A stretch of 61,890 bases of DNA from Candidatus Kerfeldbacteria bacterium (GTDB taxonomy: Bacteria > Patescibacteriota > Patescibacteriia > SBBC01 > CAIJZX01), in assembly GCA_903825245.1 (NCBI GenBank), contig CAIJZX010000029.1:1-61890 (forward strand). Reading direction: 5' to 3'. The notes below the pieces were generated by a model. It was given only the letters and a program-made list of their open reading frames with translations, was not told the DNA's origin and searched no databases. The position numbers were made by a program, and so were the translations under genes. Below are positions 3,518-26,987 of the stretch, in pieces (the first letter of the stretch is position 1; every line of letters begins with the position of its first letter).

Positions 3518-4367
3518 GTTTTTCGATAGGTTTATGGTTTGCTAAGTAATCTTTCTGCATCGCACGAAAATCAATTATAAGATTTTTGGTTATAGCACCA
3601 ACCGAACCCCCCAATATTAACTTATTATCAACTTGAGTTACTGGCATTATGTTCATTGATGTACTCGTAATGAAACACTCATCAGCAGTATATACTTCTT
3701 CCAAAGTGATATTATCCTCCAAATATTTATAGCCCGAATCGATTACTTCAAGTAATTTTATTCTTGTAACCCCATCTAATATATCGTTAATTTTTGCACT
3801 TTTTATAACTCCATCTTTCACAATAAAAAAGTTCGTTCTGGTACCTTCGGTTACAAATCCTTTACTATTGATCAGCAGACTATCCATTGCTCCCTGTTGC
3901 ACCGCCATCGAATATGCAACGTAGTTCAAGAGAGTATTAATTGATTTTGCCTTTGGAATAAATCTCTCGCCACGATATGTCACCAACTTTGCACCTTGAG
4001 AATAAATGGCATCCTTATAAAAGGTTAAGCCTAAATGGAAAATATATACATCTGAAGAAGTATTTTTCTCGGCATCCCCAAACATAATTATCCTAATTAA
4101 GCCATCTTTAATCTTATCGATTGAGCATTTCTTTTCTATCCATCCAGTTATATCGGTTTCAATATAACTATTGTTAATACCAAGTAGAGAGGCCGAATTC
4201 AAGAGTCTTTTAGCATGTAATTCTGGATAGAAAATCTTACCCTGTAGCACTTTTATTGACTCATATACACCATAATTAAACCATATCGCTTTATTCGAGA
4301 CGTGGACTGTTGCATCAGCGAAATTTAGTATTTCCCCATTACGAATTATTTTTTGATTATTATCCAT
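3510..4367 (-). CDS. Class IV (fold-type IV) PLP aminotransferase (IlvE/D-amino acid aminotransferase/PabC-like)
   Basis: YGVYESIK, KAKSIN (lysine), EGTRTNFFIV, ILDGVTR, ADECFITSTS; overlaps the next gene by 8 nt. Confidence 0.9.
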   Translation of the reverse strand: MDNNQKIIRNGEILNFADATVHVSNKAIWFNYGVYESIKVLQGKIFYPELHAKRLLNSASLLGINNSYIETDITGWIEKKCSIDKIKDGLIRIIMFGDAEKNTSSDVYIFHLGLTFYKDAIYSQGAKLVTYRGERFIPKAKSINTLLNYVAYSMAVQQGAMDSLLINSKGFVTEGTRTNFFIVKDGVIKSAKINDILDGVTRIKLLEVIDSGYKYLEDNITLEEVYTADECFITSTSMNIMPVTQVDNKLILGGSVGAITKNLIIDFRAMQKDYLANHKPIEKHV

Positions 4368-12321: not shown

Positions 12322-13587
12322 TTAGTGTCCATGGACAAGGAACAGTATATCGCGTTCTGGATTATCGAGTAAGATGGCAACTGCTTTTTCCAATTGGGAA
12401 GCGAAACGCGAGCCTTTCAACAACACGGCCACGCCCGGCGCCAGCATCGGCTGCACCACGGCTGCCGCCGCTTCAGCGTTTGTCACATTCGTGATTCGAT
12501 CGGTCGGCATACCCGATGCCGCGGCGGCTTTCCCGATCCGATCGGCTAACGGCCCAACGGTCACTAGGTAGTCAATGCGAAGTTGCGCGACTTCGTGTCC
12601 GATCCGGTCGTGCCATTCAGCAGCCATCGCACCCAGTTCGGACATTTGGCCGAGGACCGCGATACGTTGTCCAGGAATCGCCAATTCATGTAAAGAATGT
12701 ACGGCGGCCATAACCGCTTCGGGTGAGGCATTATACGTATCGTCAATAATGAGCGACCGATCCCGGCCGTGGAATAACCGCATCCGACCCGGCGGCGGCG
12801 TATAGGCGCTTAATCGTTGGATAATGGACATCACGTCGTCACCCAAAGCGCGGCCAACAGCAATCGCCGCCAGCAGCGGATAGACTTGGTGACGGCCGAG
12901 TACACCGGGCAAAGCGATCGGGATCGTACTTCCGTCGACCGATATTTTAACGACCATGCCATCAGGTAGTGCATGATCATCATTCGTGAGGCTATATGAT
13001 ACCGCGCGAATCATCGCTGTCGATGACCATCCATACGATATTACCTTGACCAACGGCGTCATCGGCATATCAGCAATCCGAGTATCATCAATATTGATTA
13101 CCGCAAATCCTTGGGGCGGTAGCCGCCGAACGACAAGCGATTCTTCTTCAACCACCGTCGCTTCATCACCAAAAAATTCTAAATGCTCCGGCGCGGCTGA
13201 GGTTAAAACGCCAATCGTCGGTCGCAGGAGGCTGAGCAACGGATCGAGATCGCCAGGATGGTCGGCCGCGAGCTCAAGTACGAGCACTGGCGGATATCGT
13301 CGATTCGATATTGCCTGCCAGACGCCGCGCCACAACAATGACAACCATTGACTCATTCCTTTTGGCGCGCCACCGGCACTCATAATAGTGGCCGGAACAC
13401 CAATCTCGGCATTAAAATTTCCTTCGGTTTTTCGGACGCTTCGAGCGACGCCGGCTAGTCCAGCAGCAATCGCATCTTTCGTCGCCGTCTTTCCCACTGA
13501 TCCGGCCACGGCTATCACGATCGGATGTGCTCGATATAGGATGATCCGAGCGAGAAACCGAAAGACGGATCGTACGAACCGTTTCAT
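12322..13587 (-). CDS. murF: UDP-N-acetylmuramoyl-tripeptide--D-Ala-D-Ala ligase
   Basis: AVAGSVGKT, NFNAEIGVP, IIDDTYNASP, VLGQMSELG, LLKGSR; dcw context. Confidence 0.88.
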   Translation of the reverse strand: MKRFVRSVFRFLARIILYRAHPIVIAVAGSVGKTATKDAIAAGLAGVARSVRKTEGNFNAEIGVPATIMSAGGAPKGMSQWLSLLWRGVWQAISNRRYPPVLVLELAADHPGDLDPLLSLLRPTIGVLTSAAPEHLEFFGDEATVVEEESLVVRRLPPQGFAVINIDDTRIADMPMTPLVKVISYGWSSTAMIRAVSYSLTNDDHALPDGMVVKISVDGSTIPIALPGVLGRHQVYPLLAAIAVGRALGDDVMSIIQRLSAYTPPPGRMRLFHGRDRSLIIDDTYNASPEAVMAAVHSLHELAIPGQRIAVLGQMSELGAMAAEWHDRIGHEVAQLRIDYLVTVGPLADRIGKAAAASGMPTDRITNVTNAEAAAAVVQPMLAPGVAVLLKGSRFASQLEKAVAILLDNPERDILFLVHGH

Positions 13588-15335
13588 TATTTCGTTGTTA
13601 TTGGACGAGTCGGCTGAATATGATCATATAACATTAAAAATTTCGCGAGCGAGCCAAACAGCGGTGCCGCCGAGCTTTCAGCAAATTGCACATCACGCGG
13701 ATGCAGAAGTTGCACTACCATCACAAATTGTGGATCCTCAACCGGGGCAAATCCGGCGAAAGTGCCGTTCGTCGCACCGACCATGTACTTACCGGTGGTG
13801 AGATCTGGAATTTGTGCGGTACCTGTTTTTCCGGCCACGTAGTAACCGGGTACAGCCGCTTTTTTCCCATGACCATTCTCAACAACATCCACCAACATTC
13901 CCGAAATGGTAGCAGCTGTTTCTGCCGAAATAACTTGGCGCACAACCTTCGGCTGTGTTACTACTTCTGTGCCGTCCGGTTTCTGTACTTTCGCCACAAT
14001 ATACGGTTGCATAAGCTTACCGCCATTCGCCATCACACCGTAGGCTGCCGCCAATTGTAATGGCGTGACCGTTAGCCCTTGACCGAACGCTCCAGTATCA
14101 GCATAAATATCTTTCTTGCTGGCCACGCCGCTAATGTTCCCGCTCGATTCATCGAGATCAATATTTGTCGGCGATCCGAAACCAAAAGCTTTCACGTATT
14201 GCGAAAATTTATCAGCACCGATTTGACTCATGGCATAAATTGCTCCAGTGTTCAGCGACTCATCAAGAACTTGTTTCATGGTTTGTACGCCATGCGCTTT
14301 TTCATCGGAGTTCTTAATGGTGAAGCTGCCAACTTTTACTTCGCCGGTATCCGTGTAGGTCGAGTCCGGCGTCACTTTACCCTCATTGAGCGCGGCGGAC
14401 ATAGTGAAGGCTTTGAACACCGATCCTGGTTCATATGGAACTTGGGTAGCGGCATTAGCAAACACTTTGGCGTCGGTCACTTGATTGAAATTGTTCGGAT
14501 CGTAATTCGGCGCACCGCACATCGCAATGATCGCCCCCGTCTTCGGATCCATAATCACCAGACTCCCACCATCGGCGCCGTGCTTTTGGACGGCATCATC
14601 TAACTGTTGGCAGGCTTCGAACTGAACCGTGCGATCAATCGTTAATAGTAAATTCGATCCGTCGATCGCTGGTTGCCACGATTGTGTCGCCGTAGCGATC
14701 AGCTGACCGGAGGCATCCTTTTGCGCATTGATATATCCTTGCTGACCAGCCAATTCTTTTTGGTACCAGCCTTCTAAACCATACCGGCCGACTTTAAGGT
14801 TTTGCGCGTTGTATCCGACGAACCCTAAAATTTGCGAGCCAAGGTTTTTATCCGGGTAATAGCGCGTCGGTTCATCACTGAACGCCACCCCGGTGATTTT
14901 CAGCGCCGCAATCGCTGTCTGCTGATCATCGGTCATGCTGTGCTGAATCGGTTCATAGAGATCATTCGCCTTGCTCAACCGCTTCAGCAATTCGTCTTTG
15001 GGCATCGTCACCAATGGCGCTAGCGCTTCCGATGCTGCGATCGGATCAGTAATTTGTTTCGGTACGACGTAGAGCAAGTGCAGGGTTTTATTTGTGGCTA
15101 ATGGATAGACGCCCGTCGATGATTGCGGATCAGAAACGAGAATCTGCCCCCGCGTCGGCAGAAGCTTCTCATTTAATTGATGGATATCCGCAGCCAGGGC
15201 TGTATAAAAACCGTGCTGCAGTACTTGCAGAGTAAATAATCGTAAGCCAAGCAATAAGGCAAAGACCACAAAAAAACCAATCACGATGCTCTCACGATTG
15301 ATCCGTCGATTTCCCGTTCCCCGGCGTTGGGCCAT
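13587..15335 (-). CDS. ftsI: Class B penicillin-binding protein (FtsI/PBP2-type transpeptidase)
   Basis: N-terminal TM, PTRGQI, YEPGSVFK (SxxK), ESLN (SxN), AGKTGTAQ. Confidence 0.9.
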   Translation of the reverse strand: MAQRRGTGNRRINRESIVIGFFVVFALLLGLRLFTLQVLQHGFYTALAADIHQLNEKLLPTRGQILVSDPQSSTGVYPLATNKTLHLLYVVPKQITDPIAASEALAPLVTMPKDELLKRLSKANDLYEPIQHSMTDDQQTAIAALKITGVAFSDEPTRYYPDKNLGSQILGFVGYNAQNLKVGRYGLEGWYQKELAGQQGYINAQKDASGQLIATATQSWQPAIDGSNLLLTIDRTVQFEACQQLDDAVQKHGADGGSLVIMDPKTGAIIAMCGAPNYDPNNFNQVTDAKVFANAATQVPYEPGSVFKAFTMSAALNEGKVTPDSTYTDTGEVKVGSFTIKNSDEKAHGVQTMKQVLDESLNTGAIYAMSQIGADKFSQYVKAFGFGSPTNIDLDESSGNISGVASKKDIYADTGAFGQGLTVTPLQLAAAYGVMANGGKLMQPYIVAKVQKPDGTEVVTQPKVVRQVISAETAATISGMLVDVVENGHGKKAAVPGYYVAGKTGTAQIPDLTTGKYMVGATNGTFAGFAPVEDPQFVMVVQLLHPRDVQFAESSAAPLFGSLAKFLMLYDHIQPTRPITTK

Positions 15336-15351
15336 CGATGTCAGAGTTTCA

Positions 15352-15699
15352 TTAACGAGCTGCCACCGCGCCGCCAGTCGGAGCCAAATATTGGAATGTA
15401 TCGGCCGACACCATGCCCAGTTGTGTACTCGACGCCTGCACCGCTGCGAGTGCCTGCAAATCGGCGGATTTCAATTCCAGTTTCTGATTATCGGCTTGCG
15501 TCTTGGCGATTTGCTGCTGTAGACCTTTAATGGCAAAACCTTCCTGCGCCGTCTGGTTGGTCATAAAGACATAACCAAAGCCCGTAGCCACTGCACCAAT
15601 CGATACCAGGATGGCAAACTTCTGGGTGGAGAGTTTCAAGGCATGCCACCAATGATGTTCGGGAGACAGTATTTCGCGGGAGTTGAGTTTACGAGCCAT
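15352..15699 (-). CDS. ftsL: FtsL-like cell division protein
   Basis: Single TM plus coiled coil, located between rsmH and ftsI. Confidence 0.6.
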   Translation of the reverse strand: MARKLNSREILSPEHHWWHALKLSTQKFAILVSIGAVATGFGYVFMTNQTAQEGFAIKGLQQQIAKTQADNQKLELKSADLQALAAVQASSTQLGMVSADTFQYLAPTGGAVAAR

Positions 15700-15720
15700 A
15701 CGTTTGTATTAGTTGTTTGT

Positions 15721-16611
15721 TTATATCTTCGTAAGAATTCTGAGTTTTGCGCTTCGCGATCGCGGATTAGCAAGTTGTTCTTGTCGTGTTGGCGCGATAA
15801 CGTGTTTGGTATTAATCGTTACATCGGCGTCGGGTAGTGACTTCATCCAGCGCTTGACGATGCGATCCTCACCGGAGTGAAAGGTAATGACTGCGAGTCG
15901 ACCGCCGTTGGCTAACAGTCGTAGTGCCGCCGGCAAAGCCGTGGTAATTGCGCCGTACTCATCGTTAACCGCAATCCGTAACGCTTGGAAAACATTCGTG
16001 GCCGGATGAATTCGACCGCGCCGATGTTTCACTGTTTCAATCGCCGTCACCAGTTGTAACGTCGTAGAGAACGGTTGGCTGCGGCGCTCATCAATAATTC
16101 TTTGGGCAATGCGTTCCGCTACCGGCTCCTCACCATATTCTCGAAAGAGTTGGACGAGTTGCAATGCGGAATACTCATTCACGATATCGGCCGCGGTTGT
16201 CGTCTGCGCACTTTGATCAAACCGCATATCAAGCGGACCGTCAGCTTGAAAGGAGAATCCTCGTGTCGGATCGCCGATCGTCATGGACGACACGCCGAGG
16301 TCGAACAATATTCCTTGAACATTCGAAATATTGTTTGCTTTAGCCAACTCTTCCAAGTTACGGAAGTTTCCATGCAGAGGAATGAATCGCTGGCCGAAGG
16401 AATTCAGCGTGCCCTTCGTTTCCTGCAGTGTGCGTTCATCCGCTTCAATGCCGTAGAGCTTTCCGTTTGGAGCACACACTTCAAGCATCGCCTTCGCATG
16501 ACCGCCGCCACCGAGCGTGGCATCAATCACATTGTCATTTGCTGTAAGGTGCAACCCGACAAGAACTTCTGAGAGAAGAACCGGAACGTGATCCGGCATA
16601 GCGTTAGGCAT
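15721..16611 (-). CDS. rsmH: 16S rRNA m4C1402 methyltransferase
   Basis: HVPVLL, DATLGGGGH, DLGVSS, GPLDMR, ITFHSGEDRIVK, NPRSRSAKLR. Confidence 0.96.
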   Translation of the reverse strand: MPNAMPDHVPVLLSEVLVGLHLTANDNVIDATLGGGGHAKAMLEVCAPNGKLYGIEADERTLQETKGTLNSFGQRFIPLHGNFRNLEELAKANNISNVQGILFDLGVSSMTIGDPTRGFSFQADGPLDMRFDQSAQTTTAADIVNEYSALQLVQLFREYGEEPVAERIAQRIIDERRSQPFSTTLQLVTAIETVKHRRGRIHPATNVFQALRIAVNDEYGAITTALPAALRLLANGGRLAVITFHSGEDRIVKRWMKSLPDADVTINTKHVIAPTRQEQLANPRSRSAKLRILTKI

Positions 16612-17043
16612 TTAGACGCCGAGCTCGCCAAGAGCTTCAGCGATATCCCCGCTCTGCCGTTCCGCCCCGCTCCGGTACCTCTCCCAAGTGTCTTTGTCCC
16701 AAAGTTCTAAACGATTGTAGAGACCGGCGACCACCACGACTTTCTTCAAATTGGCATACGTCCGCAAATATTCCGGCACATTCCCCCGCCCCTGGCCATC
16801 GATATCGAGTTCCATCGCCCCGGCCAGCATCAATCGGGCAAAGGCGCGCGAGTTCGCTTTGGCAATCGGTAATTTGGATAACTTTTCCGCCATCACGAGC
16901 CACTCTTTCTTGGTGTAAATAAACAAACAACGGTCGAGTCCACGCGTCACCACTGCACCGGCTTTCAAATCAGCGCGAAACTTGACCGGAATCTGAACGC
17001 GGCCTTTTTCGTCGAGTGAGTGATGATATTCTCCGATAAACAT
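16612..17043 (-). CDS. mraZ: Transcriptional regulator MraZ
   Basis: MFIGEYHHSLDEKGRVQIP, DGQGR, RLELWD. Confidence 0.96.
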   Translation of the reverse strand: MFIGEYHHSLDEKGRVQIPVKFRADLKAGAVVTRGLDRCLFIYTKKEWLVMAEKLSKLPIAKANSRAFARLMLAGAMELDIDGQGRGNVPEYLRTYANLKKVVVVAGLYNRLELWDKDTWERYRSGAERQSGDIAEALGELGV

Positions 17044-17076
17044 GAACGTGGTGATTTATGCACTTTTTTGGCAGGC

Positions 17077-17170
17077 TGTGGATAATCCCCACTTTTTCCC
17101 ACCTACACCCATTTTACACCACAATTGGACAAGCGTCAACACAATGTTCCACGAGGAACACGGTGGATAA
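17077..17170 (-). promoter_or_regulatory. mraZ promoter with four MraZ boxes, two DnaA boxes and a parS-like palindrome
   Basis: TTGACG(17134-39)-N17-TAAAAT(17111-16). (G/A)TGG repeats begin (minus strand) at 17122, 17112, 17102 and 17092, a 10-bp period. TGTGGATAA 17077-85, GGTGGATAA 17162-70, TGTTCCACGAGGAACA 17145-60. Confidence 0.8.
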
Positions 17171-17329
17171 CTCGACCATTTTCAGGCTGAATTGTCCATA
17201 TGGGGTCGTAAAACCCCATGCCGTGATCCCGATAGCGTAAACGCATCGAGACTTCCTCCATTCCCCTCAATAAGGGGAAAGGTATAAGAAAAACTCCATG
17301 CTGTTCTGCATGGAGGTATTTGATATATT

Positions 17330-17806
17330 TCAGCTGACGCGATGAGCTGACGCAGTTAGGAGATTGCCGTCCGTATCGTACGTGACGTCCGCGGTAAATT
17401 CTTCACCGCGTTGAACATACCCGATCCACGAACGATTATCCTCCATCATCTGGCTAATGGTTGCATCGTTGATATCGTACCAACCGACGCGCTCAAGCTT
17501 CTCGATACTCTGCGGCTCACTGTTGTAGTCCATCGCTCGATAGACGCAGAGTTCAATCGTCGGTCCATCAACGTGCGTGATGTGAATGATTCCGAGCGGT
17601 TTTTCATCGAGTACAGGGATGACACTCGTCTCCTCGCGAGTTTCGCGCACCGCACAGTCTTTCGGGGTTTCGTTCAACTGCGCACGACCACCAGGCGGTT
17701 TCAGCTTGCCGGCACAAAACGGCGCCGAGAGCGGTTGATAGCCGAGGACGACTTTTCCATCGGATCGAAAGACGTACACAACGGTTTGTATCTTTGATAT
17801 ACTCAT
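17330..17806 (-). CDS. NUDIX hydrolase (MutT/MTH1-like)
   Basis: Nudix box PGGRAQLNETPKDCAVRETREETS. Confidence 0.85.
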   Translation of the reverse strand: MSISKIQTVVYVFRSDGKVVLGYQPLSAPFCAGKLKPPGGRAQLNETPKDCAVRETREETSVIPVLDEKPLGIIHITHVDGPTIELCVYRAMDYNSEPQSIEKLERVGWYDINDATISQMMEDNRSWIGYVQRGEEFTADVTYDTDGNLLTASAHRVS

Positions 17807-17955
17807 GGATTTCTCTCCTGAGGCAATGAGCGAAACGAAAGTTATTTGCCACTAGACTACGGCGATTGAAATCACTTGTCAACAGTATTTCGGGTGAATT
17901 GTAGGAATGAAAATATCGGCTCGGAATTTCTCCGAGCCTTCGCGCCTTTTCTCTG

Positions 17956-18729
17956 TTAAACCCCTGCTAGCTCTGCTTCCTGCTCCGGAACAGGCAATAG
18001 TGAAAGTTCAACCCGACCTTCTTGAGCAGCGATATATTTCTCCAGTTGTTCTTGTGTTGTTCGATCCAATTCACCGACCGCAATAATTTTAAGCGGATTG
18101 TCTGCCGTAAATTCTCCTAATCCGTGAGACCCGGAAGCTATGTCAACGGCTAACCGTATGTCGTTCAAAATATCTGCAACCGCTGCGGACTCGGTCGATA
18201 CGACAAAACCTTTCGGCAATTCTCTATTCTTCAATGGCTTGATATCGCCGACGTAAATAGCTGAGGCATCATGTAGCTCGGGAGGTCGTGACATTTTTTC
18301 TGGTGAAATAAATCGATACTCAGCTCCGACATCCGCGGCCAGTTCCTTTGACCATGTAGCAGCATACCGATCAATGGTTTCCTGAGAAACATCGTGTTCG
18401 TTCGGATGATCCCGCCGGTAGGCAATTCCTGCTGCTCCACAATTTGCATGGGCGGTAATTTCTGATACCCCACGTTTCCGTAGTTTACTGACGAGTGTCG
18501 CTCGATCTTCACCGGCCATAATATATGAACCAGCATTGCGGTCCCCTTTCATACCCTCCGGAATATCGATACCGTCGTCCATACAGGCCACACAAATCTT
18601 CGGACCTTGTTCAAAAACAGGTCCGAGTTCTTCAGGAGTAAATGCTAATAATGGCTTTTTTTGTTGTTCGCTAAACCGGCTTGCTTCACGTTCCATTTCA
18701 CTGCCTTCAGTTTCGTGGGTAAATGACAT
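17956..18729 (-). CDS. Hypothetical protein with a beta-carbonic-anhydrase-like Zn site
   Basis: CxD (ACMDDG) and HxxC (AHANCGAA) motifs with appropriate spacing. Confidence 0.55.
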   Translation of the reverse strand: MSFTHETEGSEMEREASRFSEQQKKPLLAFTPEELGPVFEQGPKICVACMDDGIDIPEGMKGDRNAGSYIMAGEDRATLVSKLRKRGVSEITAHANCGAAGIAYRRDHPNEHDVSQETIDRYAATWSKELAADVGAEYRFISPEKMSRPPELHDASAIYVGDIKPLKNRELPKGFVVSTESAAVADILNDIRLAVDIASGSHGLGEFTADNPLKIIAVGELDRTTQEQLEKYIAAQEGRVELSLLPVPEQEAELAGV

Positions 18730-18953
18730 ACATCGTTGACAACTATATGGCTAATGAAGCAACACTACCCGATACATAACGAATAGTCAAAGAATGTTGT
18801 CGAGAAAAGTTTTCCCCAGTCTTGACGAAACAGTTTTTTTGCGCTATTATAGATATCCTAAAAAAATATTTTAGACCCTGAAGCGCATCGAATTCCACGG
18901 TGTCACCTCGTGCTTCACGTTCAACGGTCATAGTTCTCATCCCCAAATCTCCC

Positions 18954-19199
18954 ATGGTACTCACCCTCCATATTCCTTGGATCATGTTTACCGCTGATAC
19001 GGTACATCCAAAACCGGCGCTCGTTCCGGCTGGGACATACGCCGTGGAACGGATTCCGAATCCGCGGCATGTCGGTGGGCGACCATGGATCATCATTGAA
19101 GGAACCACGATCGGCATGAATGAACATCTGGCTACGGAAATGACTCACGTCCACTTTGGCGATTTTCAGCTAGAGCTGGCCCTTGAAAAAAAACCCTGA
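18954..19199 (+). CDS. Small hypothetical protein
   Basis: ORF fills the intergenic space on the + strand; start uncertain. Confidence 0.4.
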   Translation: MVLTLHIPWIMFTADTVHPKPALVPAGTYAVERIPNPRHVGGRPWIIIEGTTIGMNEHLATEMTHVHFGDFQLELALEKKP

Positions 19200-19213
19200 C
19201 GTTTCCGTGACGG

Positions 19214-19618
19214 TTACTGGTGATGACGACGCTCGCCGAGCGCCACATAGCCTTGTAGGACGTCAATTAATTCGGCTTCGGCGGCGTTAGTCTCGACGCT
19301 GGTAAAACAGCGAATCTTTCGAGCTTCGGCCAATATCACCTCACCGATGATCTGTTCCTAGGGCAGCGTGATCGACGGATTCCAGGCAAGGCCGTTTCTG
19401 GCGGTTTTTGCATACGCCTGTTGCAGTGCATTCAGTAACAACCGCTTACGAGCTGATGACTCAAGTATACCCGAATACGATGGCTAGACACTGATTGTTT
19501 TACCTCGGCGACTGACCGTACAAGATCCAATCTCCACATTTGGAACAAGTCATTGAACAATCGTCCGACGGTCATATCCGCCTCCATCGTTAAGGAGCGA
19601 CATGCGTGTATTGCTCAT
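19214..19618 (-). pseudogene. Possible degraded ORF (135 codons, three in-frame stops)
   Basis: ATG 19618 to TAA 19214 in one frame with TGA 19550-52, TAG 19484-86 and TAG 19358-60; protein-like helical C-terminal half. Weak evidence. Confidence 0.3.
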
Positions 19619-19716
19619 ATCTGCACGCTACCGCCAGCAGCAGTTGTCAATGTATTGACGTCCGAGTACATGTTTCGTATACTCGACGCACCTATTCGCA
19701 ATAACAACCGTACTGC

Positions 19717-19987
19717 TCCGGGATCGTCTCATGGTAGGACTCCATCCAGCACCACACTGGGTGCTGGATAAAGGTTCCCCGGCCCGCTTCGCCTGCTCCT
19801 AAATTCAAAATGTTTTCTGATTCCGGGATCGTCTAATGGTAGGACTCCAGGTTCTGGACCTGGCTATCTTGGTTCGAATCCAGGTCCCGGAGCCACAAGA
19901 CATGTTGAATTACCTCTGGATTTCGTCGGCGAAGCAAACGGGGCGGGCTGGACCTGGCTATCTTGGGTCGAGTCCTGTGCCTGGGAA
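19717..19987 (+). pseudogene. Split, degenerate tRNA-Gln whose halves flank the intact tRNA
   Basis: 5' half TCCGGGATCGTCTCATGGTAGGACTCC (19717-43), AGGTT (19772-76), 3' half CTGGACCTGGCTATCTTGGGTCGAGTCC... (from 19948). Confidence 0.7.
19822..19895 (+). tRNA. tRNA-Gln(CTG)
   Basis: Acceptor TCCGGGA/TCCCGGA, anticodon arm CCAGG-TTCTGGA-CCTGG, T-loop TTCGAAT, encoded CCA. Confidence 0.96.
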
Positions 19988-20114
19988 GGGGTGGATTTTT
20001 TGTTGTTATGTTAGTCCTTTAAGACTTTGTACATTGAGTTTCCCAAGATTTTGAGTTGGTTCTAGTCTCACGACTGGTACCAAAAATTTCAACCCAAAAT
20101 ATCCCAAGTTGTTT

Positions 20115-20672
20115 CTATAGAGCCCAATCAATCGTAGCTCTTTCCGCCTGTAGTTTCGTATCAATAATTACGCTTATAACGCCCTGATCAGCGCACCACG
20201 TGCCTTCGTGAGAATAGAAGCGATCTCCTCCCCAAGGTCTAGGTTCACAATTCGGTGAAAAATACCAATCAACAACATACTTGTTATTGAGATACTCTTC
20301 GTTTTTCGGCCATTGTTTCGGCGAGTTGTATTCGATAAAACCTGGAGCGTGAATCATAAACCAGTTTTTTGAAAGGCCGTCCTTTGCTAATTCCATTTCC
20401 GGTGTCGCTATGAATGAGGCGGGTAAATCAGTGTTGGGGTTTTGAAGATTTAGGTCACGACTGTAGATAGGTCGACCATCAAGAAAATAGTTACGAGCAA
20501 CGGATATCAGCTGCTTATTGCTGATGCCATTGGTTGATTGACTATAAAGTGGAGAGACATTCGCACGCTTCTGTGCTATAAAAAATAACGTTTCATTTCC
20601 TACGCGCCACAGAAGCAAAGCTCCTACAATTGAGGAGGTCATGATTCCCAGCACGATAATGCCCTTTTTCAT
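20115..20672 (-). CDS. Hypothetical membrane-anchored or exported protein
   Basis: N-terminal hydrophobic helix; 185-aa ORF. Confidence 0.6.
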   Translation of the reverse strand: MKKGIIVLGIMTSSIVGALLLWRVGNETLFFIAQKRANVSPLYSQSTNGISNKQLISVARNYFLDGRPIYSRDLNLQNPNTDLPASFIATPEMELAKDGLSKNWFMIHAPGFIEYNSPKQWPKNEEYLNNKYVVDWYFSPNCEPRPWGGDRFYSHEGTWCADQGVISVIIDTKLQAERATIDWAL

Positions 20673-20944
20673 AAGGTTGTCTTTGAATTAAGCTAAAAAT
20701 AGCATGGTATAATACGCATAGCAAATATGGTTCGACCCCGTGTATTTCCGTGAAAGTCGAATTTGAAACACGAGACATTACCTACTAAAGACTGCCCCAT
20801 TTGCTTCATGTATTTTCGAAAATTTCTTAAATTTGCCAAAACCATCCCGAACGATGCACCGGGTTTAATCCAGACCGGAGTGGCGAGCAATGCGGTGGTT
20901 TTGTTTCTTATACAACACCATTCCGCGCTCCCTTTTTCGTCACA

Positions 20945-22576
20945 TTAACTAAAACTTGCCACCACTTGGTCCCACAGATCATTTTTCGGTGCCAGCGGCT
21001 TAACCGCAGACACCGTTGGCGCCGGCGTACGAATTGGTACTGGAACATTAACTTCCTGAGATTTCTGTGGTAACTCTGTCACCGGCAGATCAGTGACAAT
21101 AACTCGAATATGTACCGATTGCCCCAGCGCCTCATCTAAGGCGGTTTTTAAAGGCCCGCTATATTTCGGGTCGTTCAGTCGATCGGCGTGTAGTTTAAAC
21201 GGCACATGCAATATAACTTCCGTATCGTTTACATCACCAATCACGGCATGTTGAATACTCAAACCAATGCTGGGATACGAATGGCCGATCGTCCGCTGGA
21301 TTGCCCCCCAAACATCTCGAACGGCCTGTAGCGTTAACTGCGCGCCACTAACCGGCTTCTTGTGTATTGTTGGTGCTAATGGCGCTGGTGGTGGATCGGA
21401 AGGTTTTTCTGTGGGTAGCGATGATGGTGATGACGTCAGTTTCACTGACATTGGCGGTGGTTCTGTGCGATCACCTAAACCGTCCAATGTGGAATACGAA
21501 ATAATTGCTAGTTCAACTGGAAATTCAGTCATGGTCGCGGTTGACAATCGTCTTTCGGCTTTCAGAAAGGCCTCCACTAGTCGTTCGAGATCGTCGACCG
21601 TCGTCATGGTCGCCATTTCGGTCAGCCGCACGACGTCACTTTGATCGAAATCTGCCGCTACCTGCTGAATCAGCCGTTGATCCACTGCACACAGGAGCAA
21701 CCCGCGAACAGTCCGCAAGACATCATGCACCAACGTCGGAATATCCCCGCCTTCATCACAAAAATGATGGAACATGGTGATCGCTTCCACCGTTCGATGG
21801 TGTACAAGTTCCGTCAGTAAGGCCAGGATAAATTGCTGATCTGAATGTGGCAAGACGATATCAGCCAACGTATTGGTAATGCGTTTCTCGTCAAAGGAAA
21901 ATAATTGTCCTAACATGGTTTCCGCGTCACGAATCGAACCGCCGGACTGACGAGCAATCCTCCGGGCAACATCGTCATCAAGTACTCGCTGCTCCGCGGT
22001 CGCTATTTTCTGTAACCGCGTGGCAATGTCTTCTACCCCAACTTTTTTAAAGTCAAATCGCTGGGTGCGGGAAATAATCGTCTCAGGAACGCGATGCACC
22101 TCCGTTGTCGCTAAAATAAACATCGCGTGTGCCGGAGGTTCCTCTAGTAACTTCAGTAATGCATTAAACGCCGACATCGATAGCATGTGTACCTCATCGA
22201 TGATAAATACCTTCCGGCGTGCAAGGGTGGGAATTGTTTGCGCACTGTGGATAATGTTCTCCCGCACATTATCAACTCCAGTTTGCGAGGCGGCATCGAT
22301 CTCGATAATATCGAGACTGCTGTTCGTTAACATCGCGATACAGTTCGGACACGTATTGCAAGGCTCATTATCCTTCGTTCGTTTCGTGCAATTCACCGCT
22401 CGCGCTAAGATCCGAGCCAACGTCGTCTTACCAACCCCGCGCGGACCAACAAAAAGATATGCATGAGCGACGCGATCTTGTTGGAGGGCGTTTTGGAGTG
22501 TGATGCGAATATGCTGTTGATCGACAACATCAGAAAAAACTTGCGGTCGATAGGTACGGTATAATGCTTCAGCCAT
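20945..22576 (-). CDS. dnaX: DNA polymerase III subunit gamma/tau
   Basis: LYRTYRPQ, GPRGVGKTT, Cys cluster, IIDEVHML, FNALLKLLEEPP. Confidence 0.96.
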   Translation of the reverse strand: MAEALYRTYRPQVFSDVVDQQHIRITLQNALQQDRVAHAYLFVGPRGVGKTTLARILARAVNCTKRTKDNEPCNTCPNCIAMLTNSSLDIIEIDAASQTGVDNVRENIIHSAQTIPTLARRKVFIIDEVHMLSMSAFNALLKLLEEPPAHAMFILATTEVHRVPETIISRTQRFDFKKVGVEDIATRLQKIATAEQRVLDDDVARRIARQSGGSIRDAETMLGQLFSFDEKRITNTLADIVLPHSDQQFILALLTELVHHRTVEAITMFHHFCDEGGDIPTLVHDVLRTVRGLLLCAVDQRLIQQVAADFDQSDVVRLTEMATMTTVDDLERLVEAFLKAERRLSTATMTEFPVELAIISYSTLDGLGDRTEPPPMSVKLTSSPSSLPTEKPSDPPPAPLAPTIHKKPVSGAQLTLQAVRDVWGAIQRTIGHSYPSIGLSIQHAVIGDVNDTEVILHVPFKLHADRLNDPKYSGPLKTALDEALGQSVHIRVIVTDLPVTELPQKSQEVNVPVPIRTPAPTVSAVKPLAPKNDLWDQVVASFS

Positions 22577-22702
22577 GGTTGATAGTTAACATTGCAAAAT
22601 GAAGAAGCTCGTGGCAACGGTGGCTCAGAGCCTCCGTAACCGAGTATAGTGTACCTGAAAAAGGCACACTCCTGCAAGGTGCTTTCGAAACTTTTAAAGC
22701 AA

Positions 22703-23329
22703 CTACAGCAGTTCTTTCGCTGTATCGCTCTGTTTAATGATGTTTTCTACGGCTGCCCAGCGAGAGTCGCCAACTGCCGGTACCAACACCACCACATCAT
22801 CGCCCGTTTCGCCCTTGAAATACGTGATCGAGGCCAGGAGGACTTTAAAGCTTCGCCCATCAGCTACCACCCGATACTCGCCCGTGACCTCATCACGAGT
22901 CAGTTGACCGATAAGCCGTTGTCGATCAATTGGTCCGATCTGTTTGTAAATAAACGAACCATCGCGCGTGATCGTCAGTTTCAACACATCACCTTCGACC
23001 AGTTTTGATTTGGAAGCATAGTTGGCCGGGACAGAATACTGTTTCCCATCAGGACCAAGCATATTCTGACCATCGAAGGCTCCCTCGATAATTTTTGATC
23101 CTTCCGGATCTGCGGTCGTAGGAAGTGAGGCGTTTCGGACACGAATTGCTGGAGCGATATGTACACCCCGAACCGAAAGCATGTGGCGAATCGTATCGAT
23201 CGCCTGTTGAGCAGATTCGAGTAAGGGCAGGATTTCGGATGCGTCAATCGGCTCAACCGGAGGGGTGTCCGTTGAGGTATCGTCAGTGGTGTCAGTTGTC
23301 GGTGCTAGCTGTTGGTCAAGTTCGTCCAT
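22703..23329 (-). CDS. Conserved hypothetical protein (CPR-type)
   Basis: IIEGAFDGQNMLGPDGKQYSVPANYASKSKLVEGD segment recalled from Patescibacteria proteins; acidic N-terminus. Confidence 0.7.
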   Translation of the reverse strand: MDELDQQLAPTTDTTDDTSTDTPPVEPIDASEILPLLESAQQAIDTIRHMLSVRGVHIAPAIRVRNASLPTTADPEGSKIIEGAFDGQNMLGPDGKQYSVPANYASKSKLVEGDVLKLTITRDGSFIYKQIGPIDRQRLIGQLTRDEVTGEYRVVADGRSFKVLLASITYFKGETGDDVVVLVPAVGDSRWAAVENIIKQSDTAKELL

Positions 23330-23468
23330 ATATTTTGTGTGGGTATAACTTAATGTTTATTTTAGTGAACGTCCCCAGGGTAGCAAAAAGAAGATAATCC
23401 GTCAAACTGGCTACCAGCATAGTCGCTGAACCTGAGTAAGGACTGAACACCAGAAGTGTTCACCCTTC

Positions 23469-23999
23469 TTACACCCGATACAACCACACCGCCATAGTTC
23501 GCGGATTGGGTTTGTCCTTCGACACCGGTTGCCACCCGGCGATGGAAAAAGCGAACGACACAATTCTTGTCCCGGAACGTAATTCTCGTCGAAATTTTTC
23601 ACCCAATTTCTTCATAGCCGCCGGTGTCAAAAAACATACCACCACATCAGCATCTGATAAATTTTCGTAAAAGAAATCCTTCATTACTATGGTTGCTGAA
23701 CCACCAAGCCTGGCTCGCCAGAGCCGGATTTTTGCCACCATATACGGAAGCAGTGAAATTTCATACCCAACGGCTAGAGCATGATAGTCGCGGGCAGCGG
23801 TCAAAATAAACCTTCCATCACCGGCACCTAAATCAACGACCTTCTCTCCCGGCTTGAGATCGGCAATCCGTAACATCCGTTCAACGTCATGTTGCCGCGT
23901 CGGCACATACGGTGCCGCTCGCCACCCAGCCCAGGCTGCAGTTGCCGCCACGATAAATACGACAAGTAACGCTACCGTCCACAGAAGGGTGCCAATCAT
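23469..23999 (-). CDS. Membrane-anchored class I SAM-dependent methyltransferase
   Basis: N-terminal TM, APYVPT, VDLGAGDGR. Confidence 0.85.
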   Translation of the reverse strand: MIGTLLWTVALLVVFIVAATAAWAGWRAAPYVPTRQHDVERMLRIADLKPGEKVVDLGAGDGRFILTAARDYHALAVGYEISLLPYMVAKIRLWRARLGGSATIVMKDFFYENLSDADVVVCFLTPAAMKKLGEKFRRELRSGTRIVSFAFSIAGWQPVSKDKPNPRTMAVWLYRV

Positions 24000-26497
24000 T
24001 ATCGTGAGGTTTCCGCTACCGGCGCCGCGGGCACTGTGGCTGGCGAACCAAGTTGCGTCCGCTCTAAGATATCCGCCTCGACAAAGCTTCGCTCTTTGCC
24101 ATACCGAAGACGAGAATATTGTTTGATGGCTTCGGCAATCTCCGGCGTTCCTGGCGACAGTGGATAGGTAGCGATATGAAACGGCGGCGCGGCGGTATTG
24201 TCAATCAATAACCGCAAATACGCCGTATACTTCTTTTGGTTGACCATGTCGTACGCGGTAAATCGCGGCGCGAATTGTTTCTCTAATATTTCCGCATCAT
24301 CAACGCCAATACGAAATGCGACCATCGTTCCCACGTTTCCTAAGATTGCATCACGTACCTTGGTATCATTATTCTGAGCCAATTGGCTCATGTATTGGTG
24401 AGCCATAGTCAAATTGAGTTTGTACTTTCTCGCCTCCGAGAGAATGGTGGCAATCGAATCGGTAATGAAGTTTTGGAATTCGTCAACATACAGATAAAAG
24501 TCTTGACGTTGATCTTCTGGAATATCGGCGCGGGACAAAGCCGCCATTTGCAGTTTGGAAACAATAATCAACCCTAACAGAAAGGCATTCACTTCGCCAA
24601 CCTGTCCCTTTGATAAATTGACCAACAAAATCTTTTTTTCGTCCATAATCTGCCGGAAATTAAAGGCCGACTTCGATTGACCGATAATGTTTCGCATCAT
24701 AGCGTTTTCCACGAATCGCCCAACCTTGGAAATCAGATAGCCAAGCATTTCTGATTTATGAAAATCGCTCGTTTTGGCCATTTCTTTTTCCCAAAACGCT
24801 CGCACCACCGGATCTTTCACTTTGGTCAATTTATACGCTTGAAAAGCCTTGTCGGTAAAGATGCGCGGAATATCGGCGATCGTACCCGGCGACTCCTCAT
24901 CTTCCATCAACGTCAGCATCGCGTTACGCATGTTGTGCTCAAACATCGGACCAATCATCTCCGGCGGAAAGAGTTTCATGAAAATAGCCACCATCTCCTG
25001 CGCCGCCGCATCACGTTCTTGCGGCGTATGTGCTTCCATCATGTTCAAACCCATCGGCCGTTCCAGATCAGCAGGATTGAAAAGAATCACATCGTGCATC
25101 CGTACCGCCGGGATATGCTCCATAATGTCTTTGATTAAATCTCCGTGCGGATCAACGACGCATACGCCTTCACCGCGAGCTATGTCCTGAATCGCCATGT
25201 TAGCCAGCAAGATCGATTTACCCACACCGGTAGTACCAACGACATAGACGTGACGTCGCCGATCACCGGGCTTGATTCGCACAACTAAGTCTTGTCCACG
25301 ATACTCGTTGTGTCCTAAGGTAATTCCTTCTGTCGGCAACGCTACCGGTGCCGCAGCTTGTTGGGCAGCTAACCAGGAAATATTCGGCGTATCCATCGTC
25401 GAAAGTGGGAAATGATAGAGACTATTTATCTCTTCACTATTGAGGATCATCGACGTCCGATGGAAATTCCGCCAAATCGTGTCCCAAATCACTCGTCCGG
25501 AACTTCGCACCCGACGACGTTTAAACGTCGTACCAGACTCCGGTGCTTGAAATTGCGTAAAGGCATTGACGACGTTTTCTAAATGAACCCGGGCATTTCG
25601 TTCATTCGGCGAGCAGGTAACGATACGTATATTCACTTCAAAGGCTGGCTTACCCGCTTTCTCCTCCAACGATTTTATTAACTCCTGTTCTTGCGGTGTA
25701 ATATTTGGCATCTTACTCATCGCCGGCTCTTGGTTGGTTTTGAGTGACGACGTCAGCACCGAAAAAATTCCGCCAGCCGAGGTACTTCGTCGATCTTTAC
25801 CTTCTTGCATCAATTTCGCTTTTGTCATTCCCGCTTTTTCCCAACCACGTCGTTTGGTTCGAATACAGATTTGGATAACCGCGCCTTCACCGGCTTGCAC
25901 TTTCCCGAGCGCCATCGTCATGGCGTTCAATGGATCGCTGTCGAGCTTCTTATACGTCCGAATCGAATACATTGACGGTTTGGTTAATTTCAGTTCCGTA
26001 CCCTGAACAAAACTATTCGGACTGAAAATATTGTAGTCTTCTATTTCTTCGATTTGCGCCTTCGGATACTGGGCCAGAATTTGTGACTCAAGAAGTTGCC
26101 GCAAAGCGCGTGGCGCGACAACATAGAAAAAGATTTGCCCATTTGTGGCCACCATTTCAAATGACATGTGGTCGTGGCGGCCATACCAAAACTCAAACCA
26201 CAATTCGCGCACCTTACCGTTACCCGGACGATAATGTACTCCGCCCAAGGTAATGAAAAGCGTTTCGTACGTGGCTAATGTTTCCCGCCAATCACGTTGC
26301 GATTGTCCCGGTTCGGCAACTTCTTTCGGCAGACTGACCCGCAGATGCACATAGGCATGTAACTGATCGACTCGACTATGCCGCTGTAACCACCAGCGCA
26401 AGAGATATACCGTCAAAAATAAAAACACTACAATCCCAGTAATGATACCGGGCACCATCCAGTTTATCGCGGTGAAAGGATTACTCAATGAATACAT
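23999..26497 (-). CDS. VirD4/TraD/HerA-like ATPase fused to an N-terminal membrane-anchored domain
   Basis: RRRHVYVVGTTGVGKS, VDPHGD, LYVDEFQNF, LSEARKY, AHQY; start placed at ATG 26497. Confidence 0.85.
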   Translation of the reverse strand: MYSLSNPFTAINWMVPGIITGIVVFLFLTVYLLRWWLQRHSRVDQLHAYVHLRVSLPKEVAEPGQSQRDWRETLATYETLFITLGGVHYRPGNGKVRELWFEFWYGRHDHMSFEMVATNGQIFFYVVAPRALRQLLESQILAQYPKAQIEEIEDYNIFSPNSFVQGTELKLTKPSMYSIRTYKKLDSDPLNAMTMALGKVQAGEGAVIQICIRTKRRGWEKAGMTKAKLMQEGKDRRSTSAGGIFSVLTSSLKTNQEPAMSKMPNITPQEQELIKSLEEKAGKPAFEVNIRIVTCSPNERNARVHLENVVNAFTQFQAPESGTTFKRRRVRSSGRVIWDTIWRNFHRTSMILNSEEINSLYHFPLSTMDTPNISWLAAQQAAAPVALPTEGITLGHNEYRGQDLVVRIKPGDRRRHVYVVGTTGVGKSILLANMAIQDIARGEGVCVVDPHGDLIKDIMEHIPAVRMHDVILFNPADLERPMGLNMMEAHTPQERDAAAQEMVAIFMKLFPPEMIGPMFEHNMRNAMLTLMEDEESPGTIADIPRIFTDKAFQAYKLTKVKDPVVRAFWEKEMAKTSDFHKSEMLGYLISKVGRFVENAMMRNIIGQSKSAFNFRQIMDEKKILLVNLSKGQVGEVNAFLLGLIIVSKLQMAALSRADIPEDQRQDFYLYVDEFQNFITDSIATILSEARKYKLNLTMAHQYMSQLAQNNDTKVRDAILGNVGTMVAFRIGVDDAEILEKQFAPRFTAYDMVNQKKYTAYLRLLIDNTAAPPFHIATYPLSPGTPEIAEAIKQYSRLRYGKERSFVEADILERTQLGSPATVPAAPVAETSR

Positions 26498-26507
26498 GTT
26501 TGGTGTG

Positions 26508-26987
26508 TTATGCGTCGTGACGCGGCGTGTGACCAAGCGCTACAATCGCATCGGTTTTAATTTTTGCCTGTTGTTCAAGAAAATACGGATTGACCTTGGG
26601 AATAATACGTAGCCAACGGAGTAACAGTGAAACAATTTTTTTTACGCGGATTTTTGATTGTTGCAACAACTTACTAATCGCCGTGGCTGTTTCCTCTCCG
26701 GTTTGCTTAAATTTTTGTTGAGTTGCTGGGTCCATTGCCGTGAAAGCATCCTCTAGACCTTCCGCCATCGCGGCTTCGATATTTTTTACCAACAGGTCGT
26801 TTGGCTGATGTATTGCCACTGGCGCCGGCGCCACATTCGGCATGGGCACCAGATCAACTGGCTGAACTTCCGGTTGACGTTCGGCGCTTGAGTAATTGAA
26901 TTCTGGGGTCGATTCGAGATGCGACGATCCAACTTCTTGCACCGGTCGCGGTATTTCTGGAATATGTACTCTTTGTGGTTCGGGCAT
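26508..26987 (-). CDS. Conserved hypothetical protein upstream of the ATPase
   Basis: Pro/Glu-rich N-terminus, helical C-terminus WLRIIPKVNPYFLEQQAKIKTD. Confidence 0.7.
   Translation of the reverse strand: MPEPQRVHIPEIPRPVQEVGSSHLESTPEFNYSSAERQPEVQPVDLVPMPNVAPAPVAIHQPNDLLVKNIEAAMAEGLEDAFTAMDPATQQKFKQTGEETATAISKLLQQSKIRVKKIVSLLLRWLRIIPKVNPYFLEQQAKIKTDAIVALGHTPRHDA

Follow-up and report, generated by a model that had tools for sequence, protein, structure and literature searches.

An intact tRNA-Gln gene nested in the anticodon loop of a split tRNA-Gln gene in a Kerfeldbacteria genome: a candidate insertion cassette with a replacement tRNA

The logic by which a selfish insert carries a copy of what it breaks is known, and the mobile endonuclease open reading frames (ORFs) of fungal mitochondria bring with them a duplicate of the displaced gene part. 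Transfer RNA (tRNA) genes are classic integration targets and, as Williams reportedly set out in 2002, islands and prophages sit in them at the anticodon loop, the T loop or the 3' end, with the target regenerated and a fragment displaced. Here we analyze a tRNA-Gln locus at 19717-19987 of a 61,890-nucleotide (nt) stretch of Candidatus Kerfeldbacteria DNA (contig CAIJZX010000029.1 of assembly GCA_903825245.1; this whole stretch is referred to as the window), in which an intact tRNA-Gln gene is nested in the anticodon loop of a second, split tRNA-Gln gene. The insert that separates the outer halves (19777-19947, 171 nt) is ORF-less and folded back with the intact tRNA at its tip, and we read it, with a probability of roughly 70%, as a non-splicing, hairpin-bounded insertion cassette with a replacement tRNA, the outer halves being the disrupted resident gene. 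In a search of the literature outside subscription journals and supplements we found no published description of nested or hairpin-interrupted bacterial tRNA genes, and what is new here is the whole tRNA inside its predecessor's anticodon loop, the ORF-less 171-nt fold-back, and a terminal module common to tRNA-Gln and tRNA-Val loci.

Similar to tRNA-integrated islands, the insert targets a tRNA gene at the kind of junction (anticodon or T loop) known from them, keeps a functional tRNA and displaces a fragment; unlike them it measures 171 nt rather than kilobases, has no integrase and no attachment (att) core, and has displaced both halves around a complete gene. Free-standing GIY-YIG homing endonuclease genes occur in tRNA regions, as with phage T4 SegB (PMC2330249). 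The insert resembles SegB and the fungal mitochondrial ORFs as a selfish, non-splicing insert in an essential gene with which a working copy travels, and the equivalent insert of one relative (G006) has a GIY-YIG ORF; it differs in that its cargo in the window is a whole tRNA placed in the old anticodon loop, in that it is an ORF-less fold-back with a conserved GC-rich stem, and in that cutting by a nuclease would be supposed by analogy. Archaeal tRNA genes can hold multiple non-canonical introns, and split and permuted tRNAs occur there as well; in Caldiarchaeum a mobile element has been proposed as the cause of tRNA disruption (PMC4390854, PMC3293823, PMC3218864). With these, as those passages describe them, our loci share helix-closed inserts at D-, anticodon- and T-loop positions, and they differ in the bacterial host, the failure to find EndA or RtcB in the source genome, the intact copy within the insert and the decay of outer copies. 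Bacterial tRNA introns are described as self-splicing (PMC4390854, PMC3293823), and the present insert has its anticodon-loop position in common with group I introns, but gave no match to them at E up to 10 and in the window is too short and mostly tRNA.

Two further systems are closer in host or in enzyme. The ribosomal RNA (rRNA) genes of Candidate Phyla Radiation (CPR) bacteria are heavily invaded, all GIY-YIG proteins there lie in inserts that are not intron-like, and many short inserts that lack an ORF sit at the top or the base of a stem-loop (Tsurumaki et al. 2024, PMC11270868). Clade, invasion of structured-RNA genes and GIY-YIG proteins outside introns are thus common to both cases; unlike the window insert, the rRNA inserts carry no replacement gene in the passages cited, and a word search did not find tRNA in the main text of that paper. 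Within the GIY-YIG superfamily, the Ssn nucleases act site-specifically on single-stranded DNA, their sites being repeats of the hairpin type (Chenal et al. 2025, PMC11893778). As characterized there, they offer a parallel in their small GIY-YIG proteins and dispersed palindromes, and by analogy DNA hairpins such as tRNA-gene stem-loops could be targets; the abstract states no link to tRNA genes, and we set the local ORFs beside Ssn by description only.

Architecture of the nested locus

The sole tRNA that ARAGORN calls in the window is tRNA-Gln(CTG) at 19822-19895, which scores 57 bits against the Rfam tRNA model. A repeat search showed that its two sides are each present a second time in the flanks, as a direct repeat of 28 nt (19717-19744 and 19822-19849, 96% identity) and another of 37 nt (19854-19890 and 19948-19984, 84% identity). 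Spliced alignment of the inner tRNA with its flanks resolves the outer pieces into tRNA positions 1-27, 28-32 (AGGTT) and 33-60, identical to the inner copy at 57/60 bases, and these pieces meet at U33/C34 (standard numbering) with an overlap of 0, a gap of 0 and a one-base C ambiguity. Because a 13-nt exact self-match is expected at a frequency of only ~0.001 in a 1 kb flank, we dismiss chance as their source. Past position 60 the outer copy has decayed. The features of the locus are as follows.

19655-19683, plus strand: sigma-70-like promoter TTGACG-17-TATACT, 34 nt upstream of the outer 5' half
19717-19743, plus strand: outer (older) tRNA-Gln, positions 1-27; 26/27 bases as in the inner copy, the difference being A14 to C
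19744-19771, plus strand: 28-nt hairpin insertion (ATCCAGCACC / GGTGCTGGAT plus AA) in the outer anticodon stem, with perfect 10-bp arms at 19744-19753/19760-19769
19772-19776, plus strand: outer tRNA-Gln, positions 28-32 (AGGTT), the remaining anticodon stem and U32-U33, from the spliced alignment
19777-19795, plus strand: left arm of the insert's GC-rich terminal stem (CCCCGGCCCGCTTCGCCTG), which recurs in relatives
19796-19821, plus strand: leader of the inner tRNA, of which 19802-19816 pair with the trailer
19822-19895, plus strand: intact inner tRNA-Gln(CTG) with CCA encoded (ARAGORN, Rfam)
19896-19927, plus strand: trailer of the inner tRNA, pairing with the leader (AAGACAT/ATGTTTT, TTGAATT/AATTCAA)
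19928-19947, plus strand: right arm of the terminal stem (GGCGAAGC AAAC GGGGCGGG), from repeat search and co-folding
19948-19987, plus strand: outer tRNA-Gln 3' half from C34; 25/28 bases as in the inner copy to position 60, then decayed T stem and acceptor strand, no CCA

The insert is a fold-back. Its arms pair as GCTTCGCC/GGCGAAGC (19786-19793/19928-19935) and, with 81% complementarity, over 27 nt at 19802-19828/19885-19911. Folding of all 274 nt gives z = -4.5, which 0/200 shuffles equal, and the two flanks of the inner tRNA co-fold with z = -6.8. A first-pass annotation, made from the letters of the sequence, had put forward an intact tRNA-Gln nested in the anticodon loop of a split one, a second tRNA-Gln broken at U33/C34 that is rebuilt when 19744-19771 and 19777-19947 are dropped, a large insert folded back around the intact tRNA, and an outer copy with decayed T and acceptor stems and no CCA. 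All four descriptions stand, the first through the ARAGORN and Rfam calls together with the spliced alignment, the second through the exact join of the pieces, the third through the arm pairs and the co-folding of the flanks, and the fourth because the alignment fades after position 60 and the joined outer pieces draw no tRNA call from ARAGORN.

The locus is not a misassembly. Checking the assembly and comparing the locus in relatives had both been proposed with that annotation, and the separate Logan assemblies of four lake-water runs, all from one study, reproduce the sequence with 0 differences, which excludes misassembly. The contig of run X1 spans 19500-20200 and that of X4 spans 19709-20200, and so takes in the entire structure, while X2 and X3 cover the locus in pieces, X3 with a gap at 19811-19853. 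X1 is possibly the source sample of the window, so that its support is not independent, and as the four runs share one study, independent support for the assembly comes mainly from other genomes. In the matching contigs of the four runs we saw no joint or alternative form of the locus. The source genome (G000) was assembled from a metagenome as a draft of 42 contigs totalling 1.30 Mb, with a completeness score of 100%; the inner gene is its sole tRNA-Gln(CTG), and tRNA-Gln(TTG) lies on another contig.

The promoter-like site at 19655-19683 is the only one in 19400-20200, none lies inside the insert, and the promoter and terminator scan of the same interval called no terminator. A promoter of the same type stands upstream of the outer piece in 5/8 nested loci, with no such site in the other 3, and in 5/6 of the loci that have no upstream pieces it stands 11-55 nt before the tRNA itself. 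From this arrangement transcription would appear to begin with the old gene and to yield a long precursor that contains the inner tRNA.

The 28-nt hairpin in the outer anticodon stem belongs to a family of dispersed palindromes of the form CCAGCACC-N(3-33)-GGTGCTGG, which occur at ~30 sites in 12/21 genomes of the order as against 1 control site, with one copy of the CCAGCACC hairpin in the source genome. The many dispersed copies are a feature of repetitive extragenic palindrome (REP) and miniature inverted-repeat transposable element (MITE)-like repeats, and no Y1 transposase (RAYT/IS200-type, PF01797) was matched in the source genome. We rejected the idea that the CCAGCACC hairpin is a tRNA-specific element, since 15/18 sites examined have no tRNA within ~800 nt. 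The first-pass annotation had also offered a decoy or processing scaffold as a possible role; the extra hairpins of the dead outer copies fit a passive sink rather than a selected decoy.

Nested tRNA genes in relatives and the terminal stem module

We searched 40 relatives with the locus and compared 19 tRNA-Gln loci, aligning each tRNA to its own flanks. Partial self-copies were present at 9/19 of these loci, which is not an unbiased rate because the 19 were the best-scoring ones and the relatives are a small, related sample; in 6 of them (L007, L009, L012, L013, L014 and L015) the copies lie on both sides, so that the nested layout does recur in relatives. Full-length outer copies match the inner tRNA at 72/72 positions in L009, 71/72 in L012, 69/72 in L007 and L015 and 66/72 in L014, bearing in mind that very short pieces in a spliced alignment may be chance matches. 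When joined, the outer pieces are called tRNA-Gln by ARAGORN in 5/8 loci, the exceptions being the window, L004 and L013. The tRNA-bearing insert occupies the identical anticodon-loop point in six loci and the D loop in L013, and outer copies are interrupted by further helix-closed inserts in D loops, T loops and anticodon stems. The piece equivalent to AGGTT follows each genome's own tRNA and reads AGGCT in L004 and L012.

In all of the nested tRNA-Gln loci tested (7/7) the flanks of the inner tRNA co-fold beyond shuffles, with z from -3.6 to -9.0 and 0/40 shuffles each. One helix prolongs the acceptor stem and another closes the insert at its borders; the sequences of these helices vary by genome (16 bp in L007, 9+5 bp in L015, 14 bp in L013). 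The pairing suggests that the insert is one unit rather than two scars, and because it holds at every nested locus tested, remnants of two unrelated elements are disfavored.

Other tRNAs of the source genome show the same layout. Colinear self-pieces flank 6/52 tRNAs on both sides, namely Pro-CGG, Gly-UCC, Arg-GCG, Gln-CUG and possibly Ser-GCU and Val-GAC, the last two of which adjoin related tRNA genes and may be confounded. The outer Pro-CGG copy aligns over 76/76 positions with 74 identical, and ~ten further tRNAs have downstream 3' pieces only. The tRNA-Pro(CGG) at C2:13214-13289 (L026), the tRNA-Gly(UCC) at C37:3849-3920 (L023) and the tRNA-Arg(GCG) at C13:43160-43237 (L025) are nested in older, multiply interrupted self-copies, with the outer tRNA-Gly(UCC) copy split into ~five pieces.

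Some smaller elements were seen along the way. Dead tRNA copies carry in their D or T loop a structured ~100-nt insert that is conserved (GTCGAG..., a hairpin with loop GAACTGCTTC, CGAGACGGGCGGCGCGATG..., CAGCGACGCCCCGGA); at least 7 copies of it were seen, each oriented as the interrupted tRNA piece, and a scan of ten other tRNA loci of the source genome found no Rfam family for it. Its copies in the source genome are these:

C32:3052-3156 (L024:353-457); C37:12320-12389; C37:11927-11976; C13:43290-43360; C41:5588-5634; C4:6-76; C37 ~3970-4070

A TCCCGC...GCGGGA double hairpin occurs in an 'empty' 52-nt form within the dead tRNA-Gln copy of G004, in its T loop (L012 ~1710-1761), and in a 'loaded' form in the source genome (C37 ~3786-3962), where the second hairpin holds the intact tRNA-Gly(UCC). 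Many tRNAs have a perfect copy of their last ~20 bases 100-150 nt downstream (L005 and L016; in the source genome tRNA-Gly-CCC on C16, tRNA-Glu-CUC on C33, and tRNA-Leu-CAA and tRNA-Met on C13); those downstream 3' copies are preceded by ~90 nt of structured, GC-rich sequence that is bordered on the left by an inverted T-arm copy.

The ends of the insert link these loci across cargo. Its left arm CCCCGGCCCGCTTCGCCTG and the partner GCGAAGC..GGGGCGGG recur within the order, the 13-nt core of the left arm being found in 8/21 genomes, 2 of them coding noise. The terminal module surrounds the nested tRNA-Gln in G000, G004 and G014, with the left arm only in G009, and the same stem (CCCCGGCCCGCTTCGCC...GCGAAGC..GGGGCGGG) also brackets a nested tRNA-Val in the D loop of an outer tRNA-Val in G002, G006 and G017. 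In the four Gln loci the module is oriented as the tRNA and in the Val loci (L038, L168, L033) opposite to its cargo; for L033 orientation was judged by eye, as ARAGORN's nearest call there is a shortened tRNA that confounds the automatic result. Since both orientations relative to the cargo occur, the terminal stem would be a DNA-level module rather than an RNA signal of the tRNA strand, and its sequence and distribution suggest that the cargo is exchangeable.

Origin of the insert

Taken together, the single exact insertion, the unity of the fold-back, the recurrence across genomes and tRNAs, the shared terminal module and the decay of outer copies are what lead us to favor a cassette. The first-pass annotation had likewise thought of an intron-like or anticodon-targeting element carrying a replacement tRNA, and had named two independent att duplications as an explanation that would undo it. 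A single insert with a replacement tRNA agrees with the exact abutment of the halves, the pairing of the flanks in 7/7 nested loci and the terminal stem at tRNA-Val, and the same three observations speak against two att duplications. 'Intron-like' in the sense of splicing found no support: there is no group I or II match, no EndA, no RtcB and a decayed outer copy.

In the course of events that we propose, a 171-nt cassette carrying a complete tRNA-Gln would have inserted into the resident tRNA-Gln(CTG) gene at its anticodon loop. The cassette appears to be promoterless, and the resident promoter at 19655-19683 would transcribe the inner tRNA within a long precursor, from which it would presumably be freed by ordinary RNase P and 3'-end processing. 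The outer split gene would be an unspliced relic, decaying and, because it is free of selection, gathering small palindromic insertions such as the 28-nt hairpin. Cassettes in essential tRNA genes would be seen only with target-matching cargo because other insertions would presumably be lost. As for how such cassettes spread, we prefer, at somewhat less than even odds, a homing process: a loop of the tRNA gene would be cut by a small GIY-YIG nuclease, and repair of the break would use a cassette-bearing copy as its template, the conserved tRNA halves providing the homology arms.

Several observations bear on this engine. The source genome has six small GIY-YIG ORFs, two of which, at C16:72077 and C14:10238, lie directly upstream of tRNAs, one of these tRNAs being tRNA-Gln(TTG). 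In G006 the equivalent insert with an inner tRNA-Gln encodes, at L013:1256-1600, a GIY-YIG domain ORF (PF01541, 56 bits) that reads into the tRNA; the window insert has no such ORF, and tblastn of the six small GIY-YIG ORFs against 18600-20200 gave no remnant, with nothing below E 0.6. Filled and empty alleles at one site, as expected of a homing cassette, exist directly downstream of dnaX, where tRNA-Gln is plain in G002 and nested in G003 and G004. In three relatives of the same genus tRNA-Gln(CTG) directly follows dnaX and shares its strand; in the window the tRNA locus is inverted relative to dnaX (20945-22576), with an unannotated 185-aa ORF that has a hydrophobic N-terminus (20115-20672) in between, and because of the inversion the window locus is not strictly that dnaX site.

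Which copy is older, and whether the inner one came from outside, can be approached through allele differences. In G014 the outer copy is a different, foldable allele, with a T stem (CGGGG/CCCTG) as in its family, while the inner T stem is CTAGG/CCTGG; as the two differ, the inner copy of G014 is not a local duplicate. In the window the last 17 nt of the inner leader agree at 16/17 positions with the leader of the outer, promoter-proximal tRNA-Gln of the same-genus G003, a score that 0/300 shuffles reach, and the inner trailer agrees at 11/13 with the outer trailer of G003 (7/300 shuffles). The converse comparison of the window's outer leader and trailer with the inner ones of G003 was not significant (25/300 and 217/300 shuffles reach the score), so that a 'reciprocal nesting' is one-sided only. 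The matches to G003 would be consistent with import of the inner copy.

A number of points weigh against the cassette and its proposed history. No nuclease, recombinase or transposase was found in or beside the insert (Pfam on the 11 ORFs of 13587-26536; tblastn with GIY-YIG), and the matching Logan contigs hold no empty allele of the locus and no sign of current mobility. The terminal stem was found within the one order only; at class level a gapped two-arm pattern occurs in 10/401 genomes, mostly as coding noise at about the control rate, with one addition, the tRNA-Val of G006. Public genome, viral and metagenome scans returned noise apart from two already known loci. Matches of the 19-mer arm to public genome contigs came to at least 119 stretches; among the 80 examined, 30 have a tRNA, 29 of these being an actinomycete coding gene beside tRNA-Pro, a chance match, and the sole real one is the Kerfeldbacteria record that corresponds to L038. 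The 17-mer arm gave 14 matches in viral contigs, all in GC-rich coding-type DNA with no tRNA, and the junction of the outer half with the hairpin gave 7 in metagenome contigs, 6 of them noise without a tRNA and 1 the G040 locus. Moreover, within each genome the inner and outer copies have lineage-specific bases in common (T25 or G25; AGGTT or AGGCT), which fits local duplication or gene conversion as well as it fits import. A14-to-C, a change at an invariant tRNA position (window 19730), recurs in the outer 5' pieces of three genomes (L003, L004, L007), which the cassette reading does not explain. A T16-to-C change is common to the outer 5' pieces of L012 and L015, and for both shared changes co-transfer with the cassette or selection are possible causes. 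Finally, the 5/8 joined outer copies that are tRNA-like may leave room for splicing, and the cassette reading supplies no route by which a cassette would gain a tRNA that matches its target.

The most serious alternative concerns the engine and leaves the cassette as it is. Inverted-repeat ends could be recognized by a site-specific recombinase or transposase acting in trans, the 171-nt unit being a miniature non-autonomous derivative and tRNA stem-loops serving as palindromic targets. We hold this to be unlikely next to copying by a GIY-YIG nuclease, and still take it seriously, as the terminal stem is conserved across Gln and Val cargo in either orientation, insertion is precise with a duplication of 0-1 nt, and the sites (D, anticodon and T loops) are the centers of natural inverted repeats. 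Large serine recombinases join sites without duplication, and the source genome holds two of them and three tyrosine recombinases, all on other contigs and 3/5 near tRNA genes. None of these is near the locus, and neither the order-level scan for the core (21 genomes) nor the class-level pattern (401 genomes) revealed an autonomous copy that combines these ends with a recombinase gene; a circular intermediate of 171 bp would also be very small, and a Y1 (IS200/REP-type) transposase was not found in the genome.

Less likely are two explanations that do without a mobile cassette. In the first, which we consider improbable, faulty repair or replication of a broken tRNA gene, through fold-back priming or template switching, would have built the structure locally and gene conversion would have reworked it later. 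The inserts are indeed long imperfect palindromes, the typical product of fold-back repair, and the lineage-specific bases common to inner and outer copies in each genome would follow naturally, but an identical 19-nt terminal arm across genera, on different tRNAs and in both orientations, would not, nor would the different alleles of G014 or the match of the window's inner flanks to the outer flanks of G003.

The second, to which we give a marginally smaller chance still, is a true multi-intron tRNA gene from which an undescribed bacterial splicing would remove the inserts, the inner tRNA being a second gene hosted in an intron. That joined outer copies are called tRNA-Gln at 5/8 loci, with one identical to the inner at 72/72 positions, that a helix closes every insert at its borders in a manner recalling archaeal introns, and that the sites resemble archaeal non-canonical intron positions as listed in PMC4390854, would all suit it. 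Against this, cmscan at E up to 10 over 18500-21000 matched no group I or II intron, only the tRNA and two weak unrelated hits, and in the source genome, scored 100% complete, the tRNA splicing endonuclease EndA (PF01974) and RtcB (PF01139) each gave 0 matches, where the controls were positive in 4 archaea and in 10/14 genomes, respectively. The outer copy has moreover decayed in the window, L004 and L013, three outer copies have C in place of the invariant A14, the terminal stem can face either way with respect to the tRNA, and apparently no isoacceptor exists in interrupted form only.

Two independent integrase-type att scars, one duplicating the 5' half and one the 3' half with both elements later deleted, are effectively excluded: tRNA genes are the classic targets and downstream-only 3' fragments are common in the source genome, but here both halves are displaced and abut at one point with at most one ambiguous base and no shared core, the supposed remnants pair in 7/7 loci, no integrase is nearby (Pfam, 11 ORFs of 13587-26536), and both elements would have to shrink to 45-52 nt here and to comparably short lengths in other nested loci. 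An assembly artefact that joins reads of two tRNA-Gln genes, of a kind to be feared with repeats in a metagenome draft of 42 contigs, is effectively excluded with even greater confidence by the agreement of four runs, the two contigs that span the structure with 0 differences and the presence of the layout in other genomes.

Genomic neighborhood and biological meaning

The neighbors of the locus are bacterial (penicillin-binding protein, MraW, MraZ and DnaX). The ~0.9 kb upstream of it (18730-19650) holds no convincing gene; an ORF there (18743-19117) has no Pfam match, and a weak fluoride-riboswitch-like match at 19400-19462 (13.8 bits, threshold 34 bits) is probably due to chance. An 845-aa ORF (23999-26536), ~4 kb from the tRNA locus, has type IV secretion coupling-protein domains (TrwB/TraG/VirD4-like). 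In its intron mode ARAGORN reports a tRNA-His with a 414-nt intron at 23428-23936 on the minus strand, which overlaps a methyltransferase-like ORF and is probably a false call.

We can speculate that CPR bacteria may host a kind of mobile DNA that has escaped description, made up of stem-closed cassettes that would enter DNA hairpins precisely at the loop, be it a D, anticodon or T loop of a tRNA gene or the loop of a previous insert. Such cassettes would exist in empty and tRNA-loaded forms, so that tRNA genes would be overwritten serially from the inside and leave relics like Russian dolls, with a structure-specific single-strand GIY-YIG nuclease as a conceivable engine; we regard this wider picture as doubtful at present.

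If the cassette reading is correct, miniature elements would be invading essential single-copy tRNA genes in streamlined genomes and replacing them from the inside. The many tRNA fragments that lie beside CPR tRNA genes, a practical problem for annotation, would then have an explanation, and the reading would point to nucleases or recombinases that recognize tRNA-gene stem-loops. It would also provide a bacterial counterpart to the disrupted tRNA genes of archaea, and a model of how a gene can be interrupted without loss of its function.

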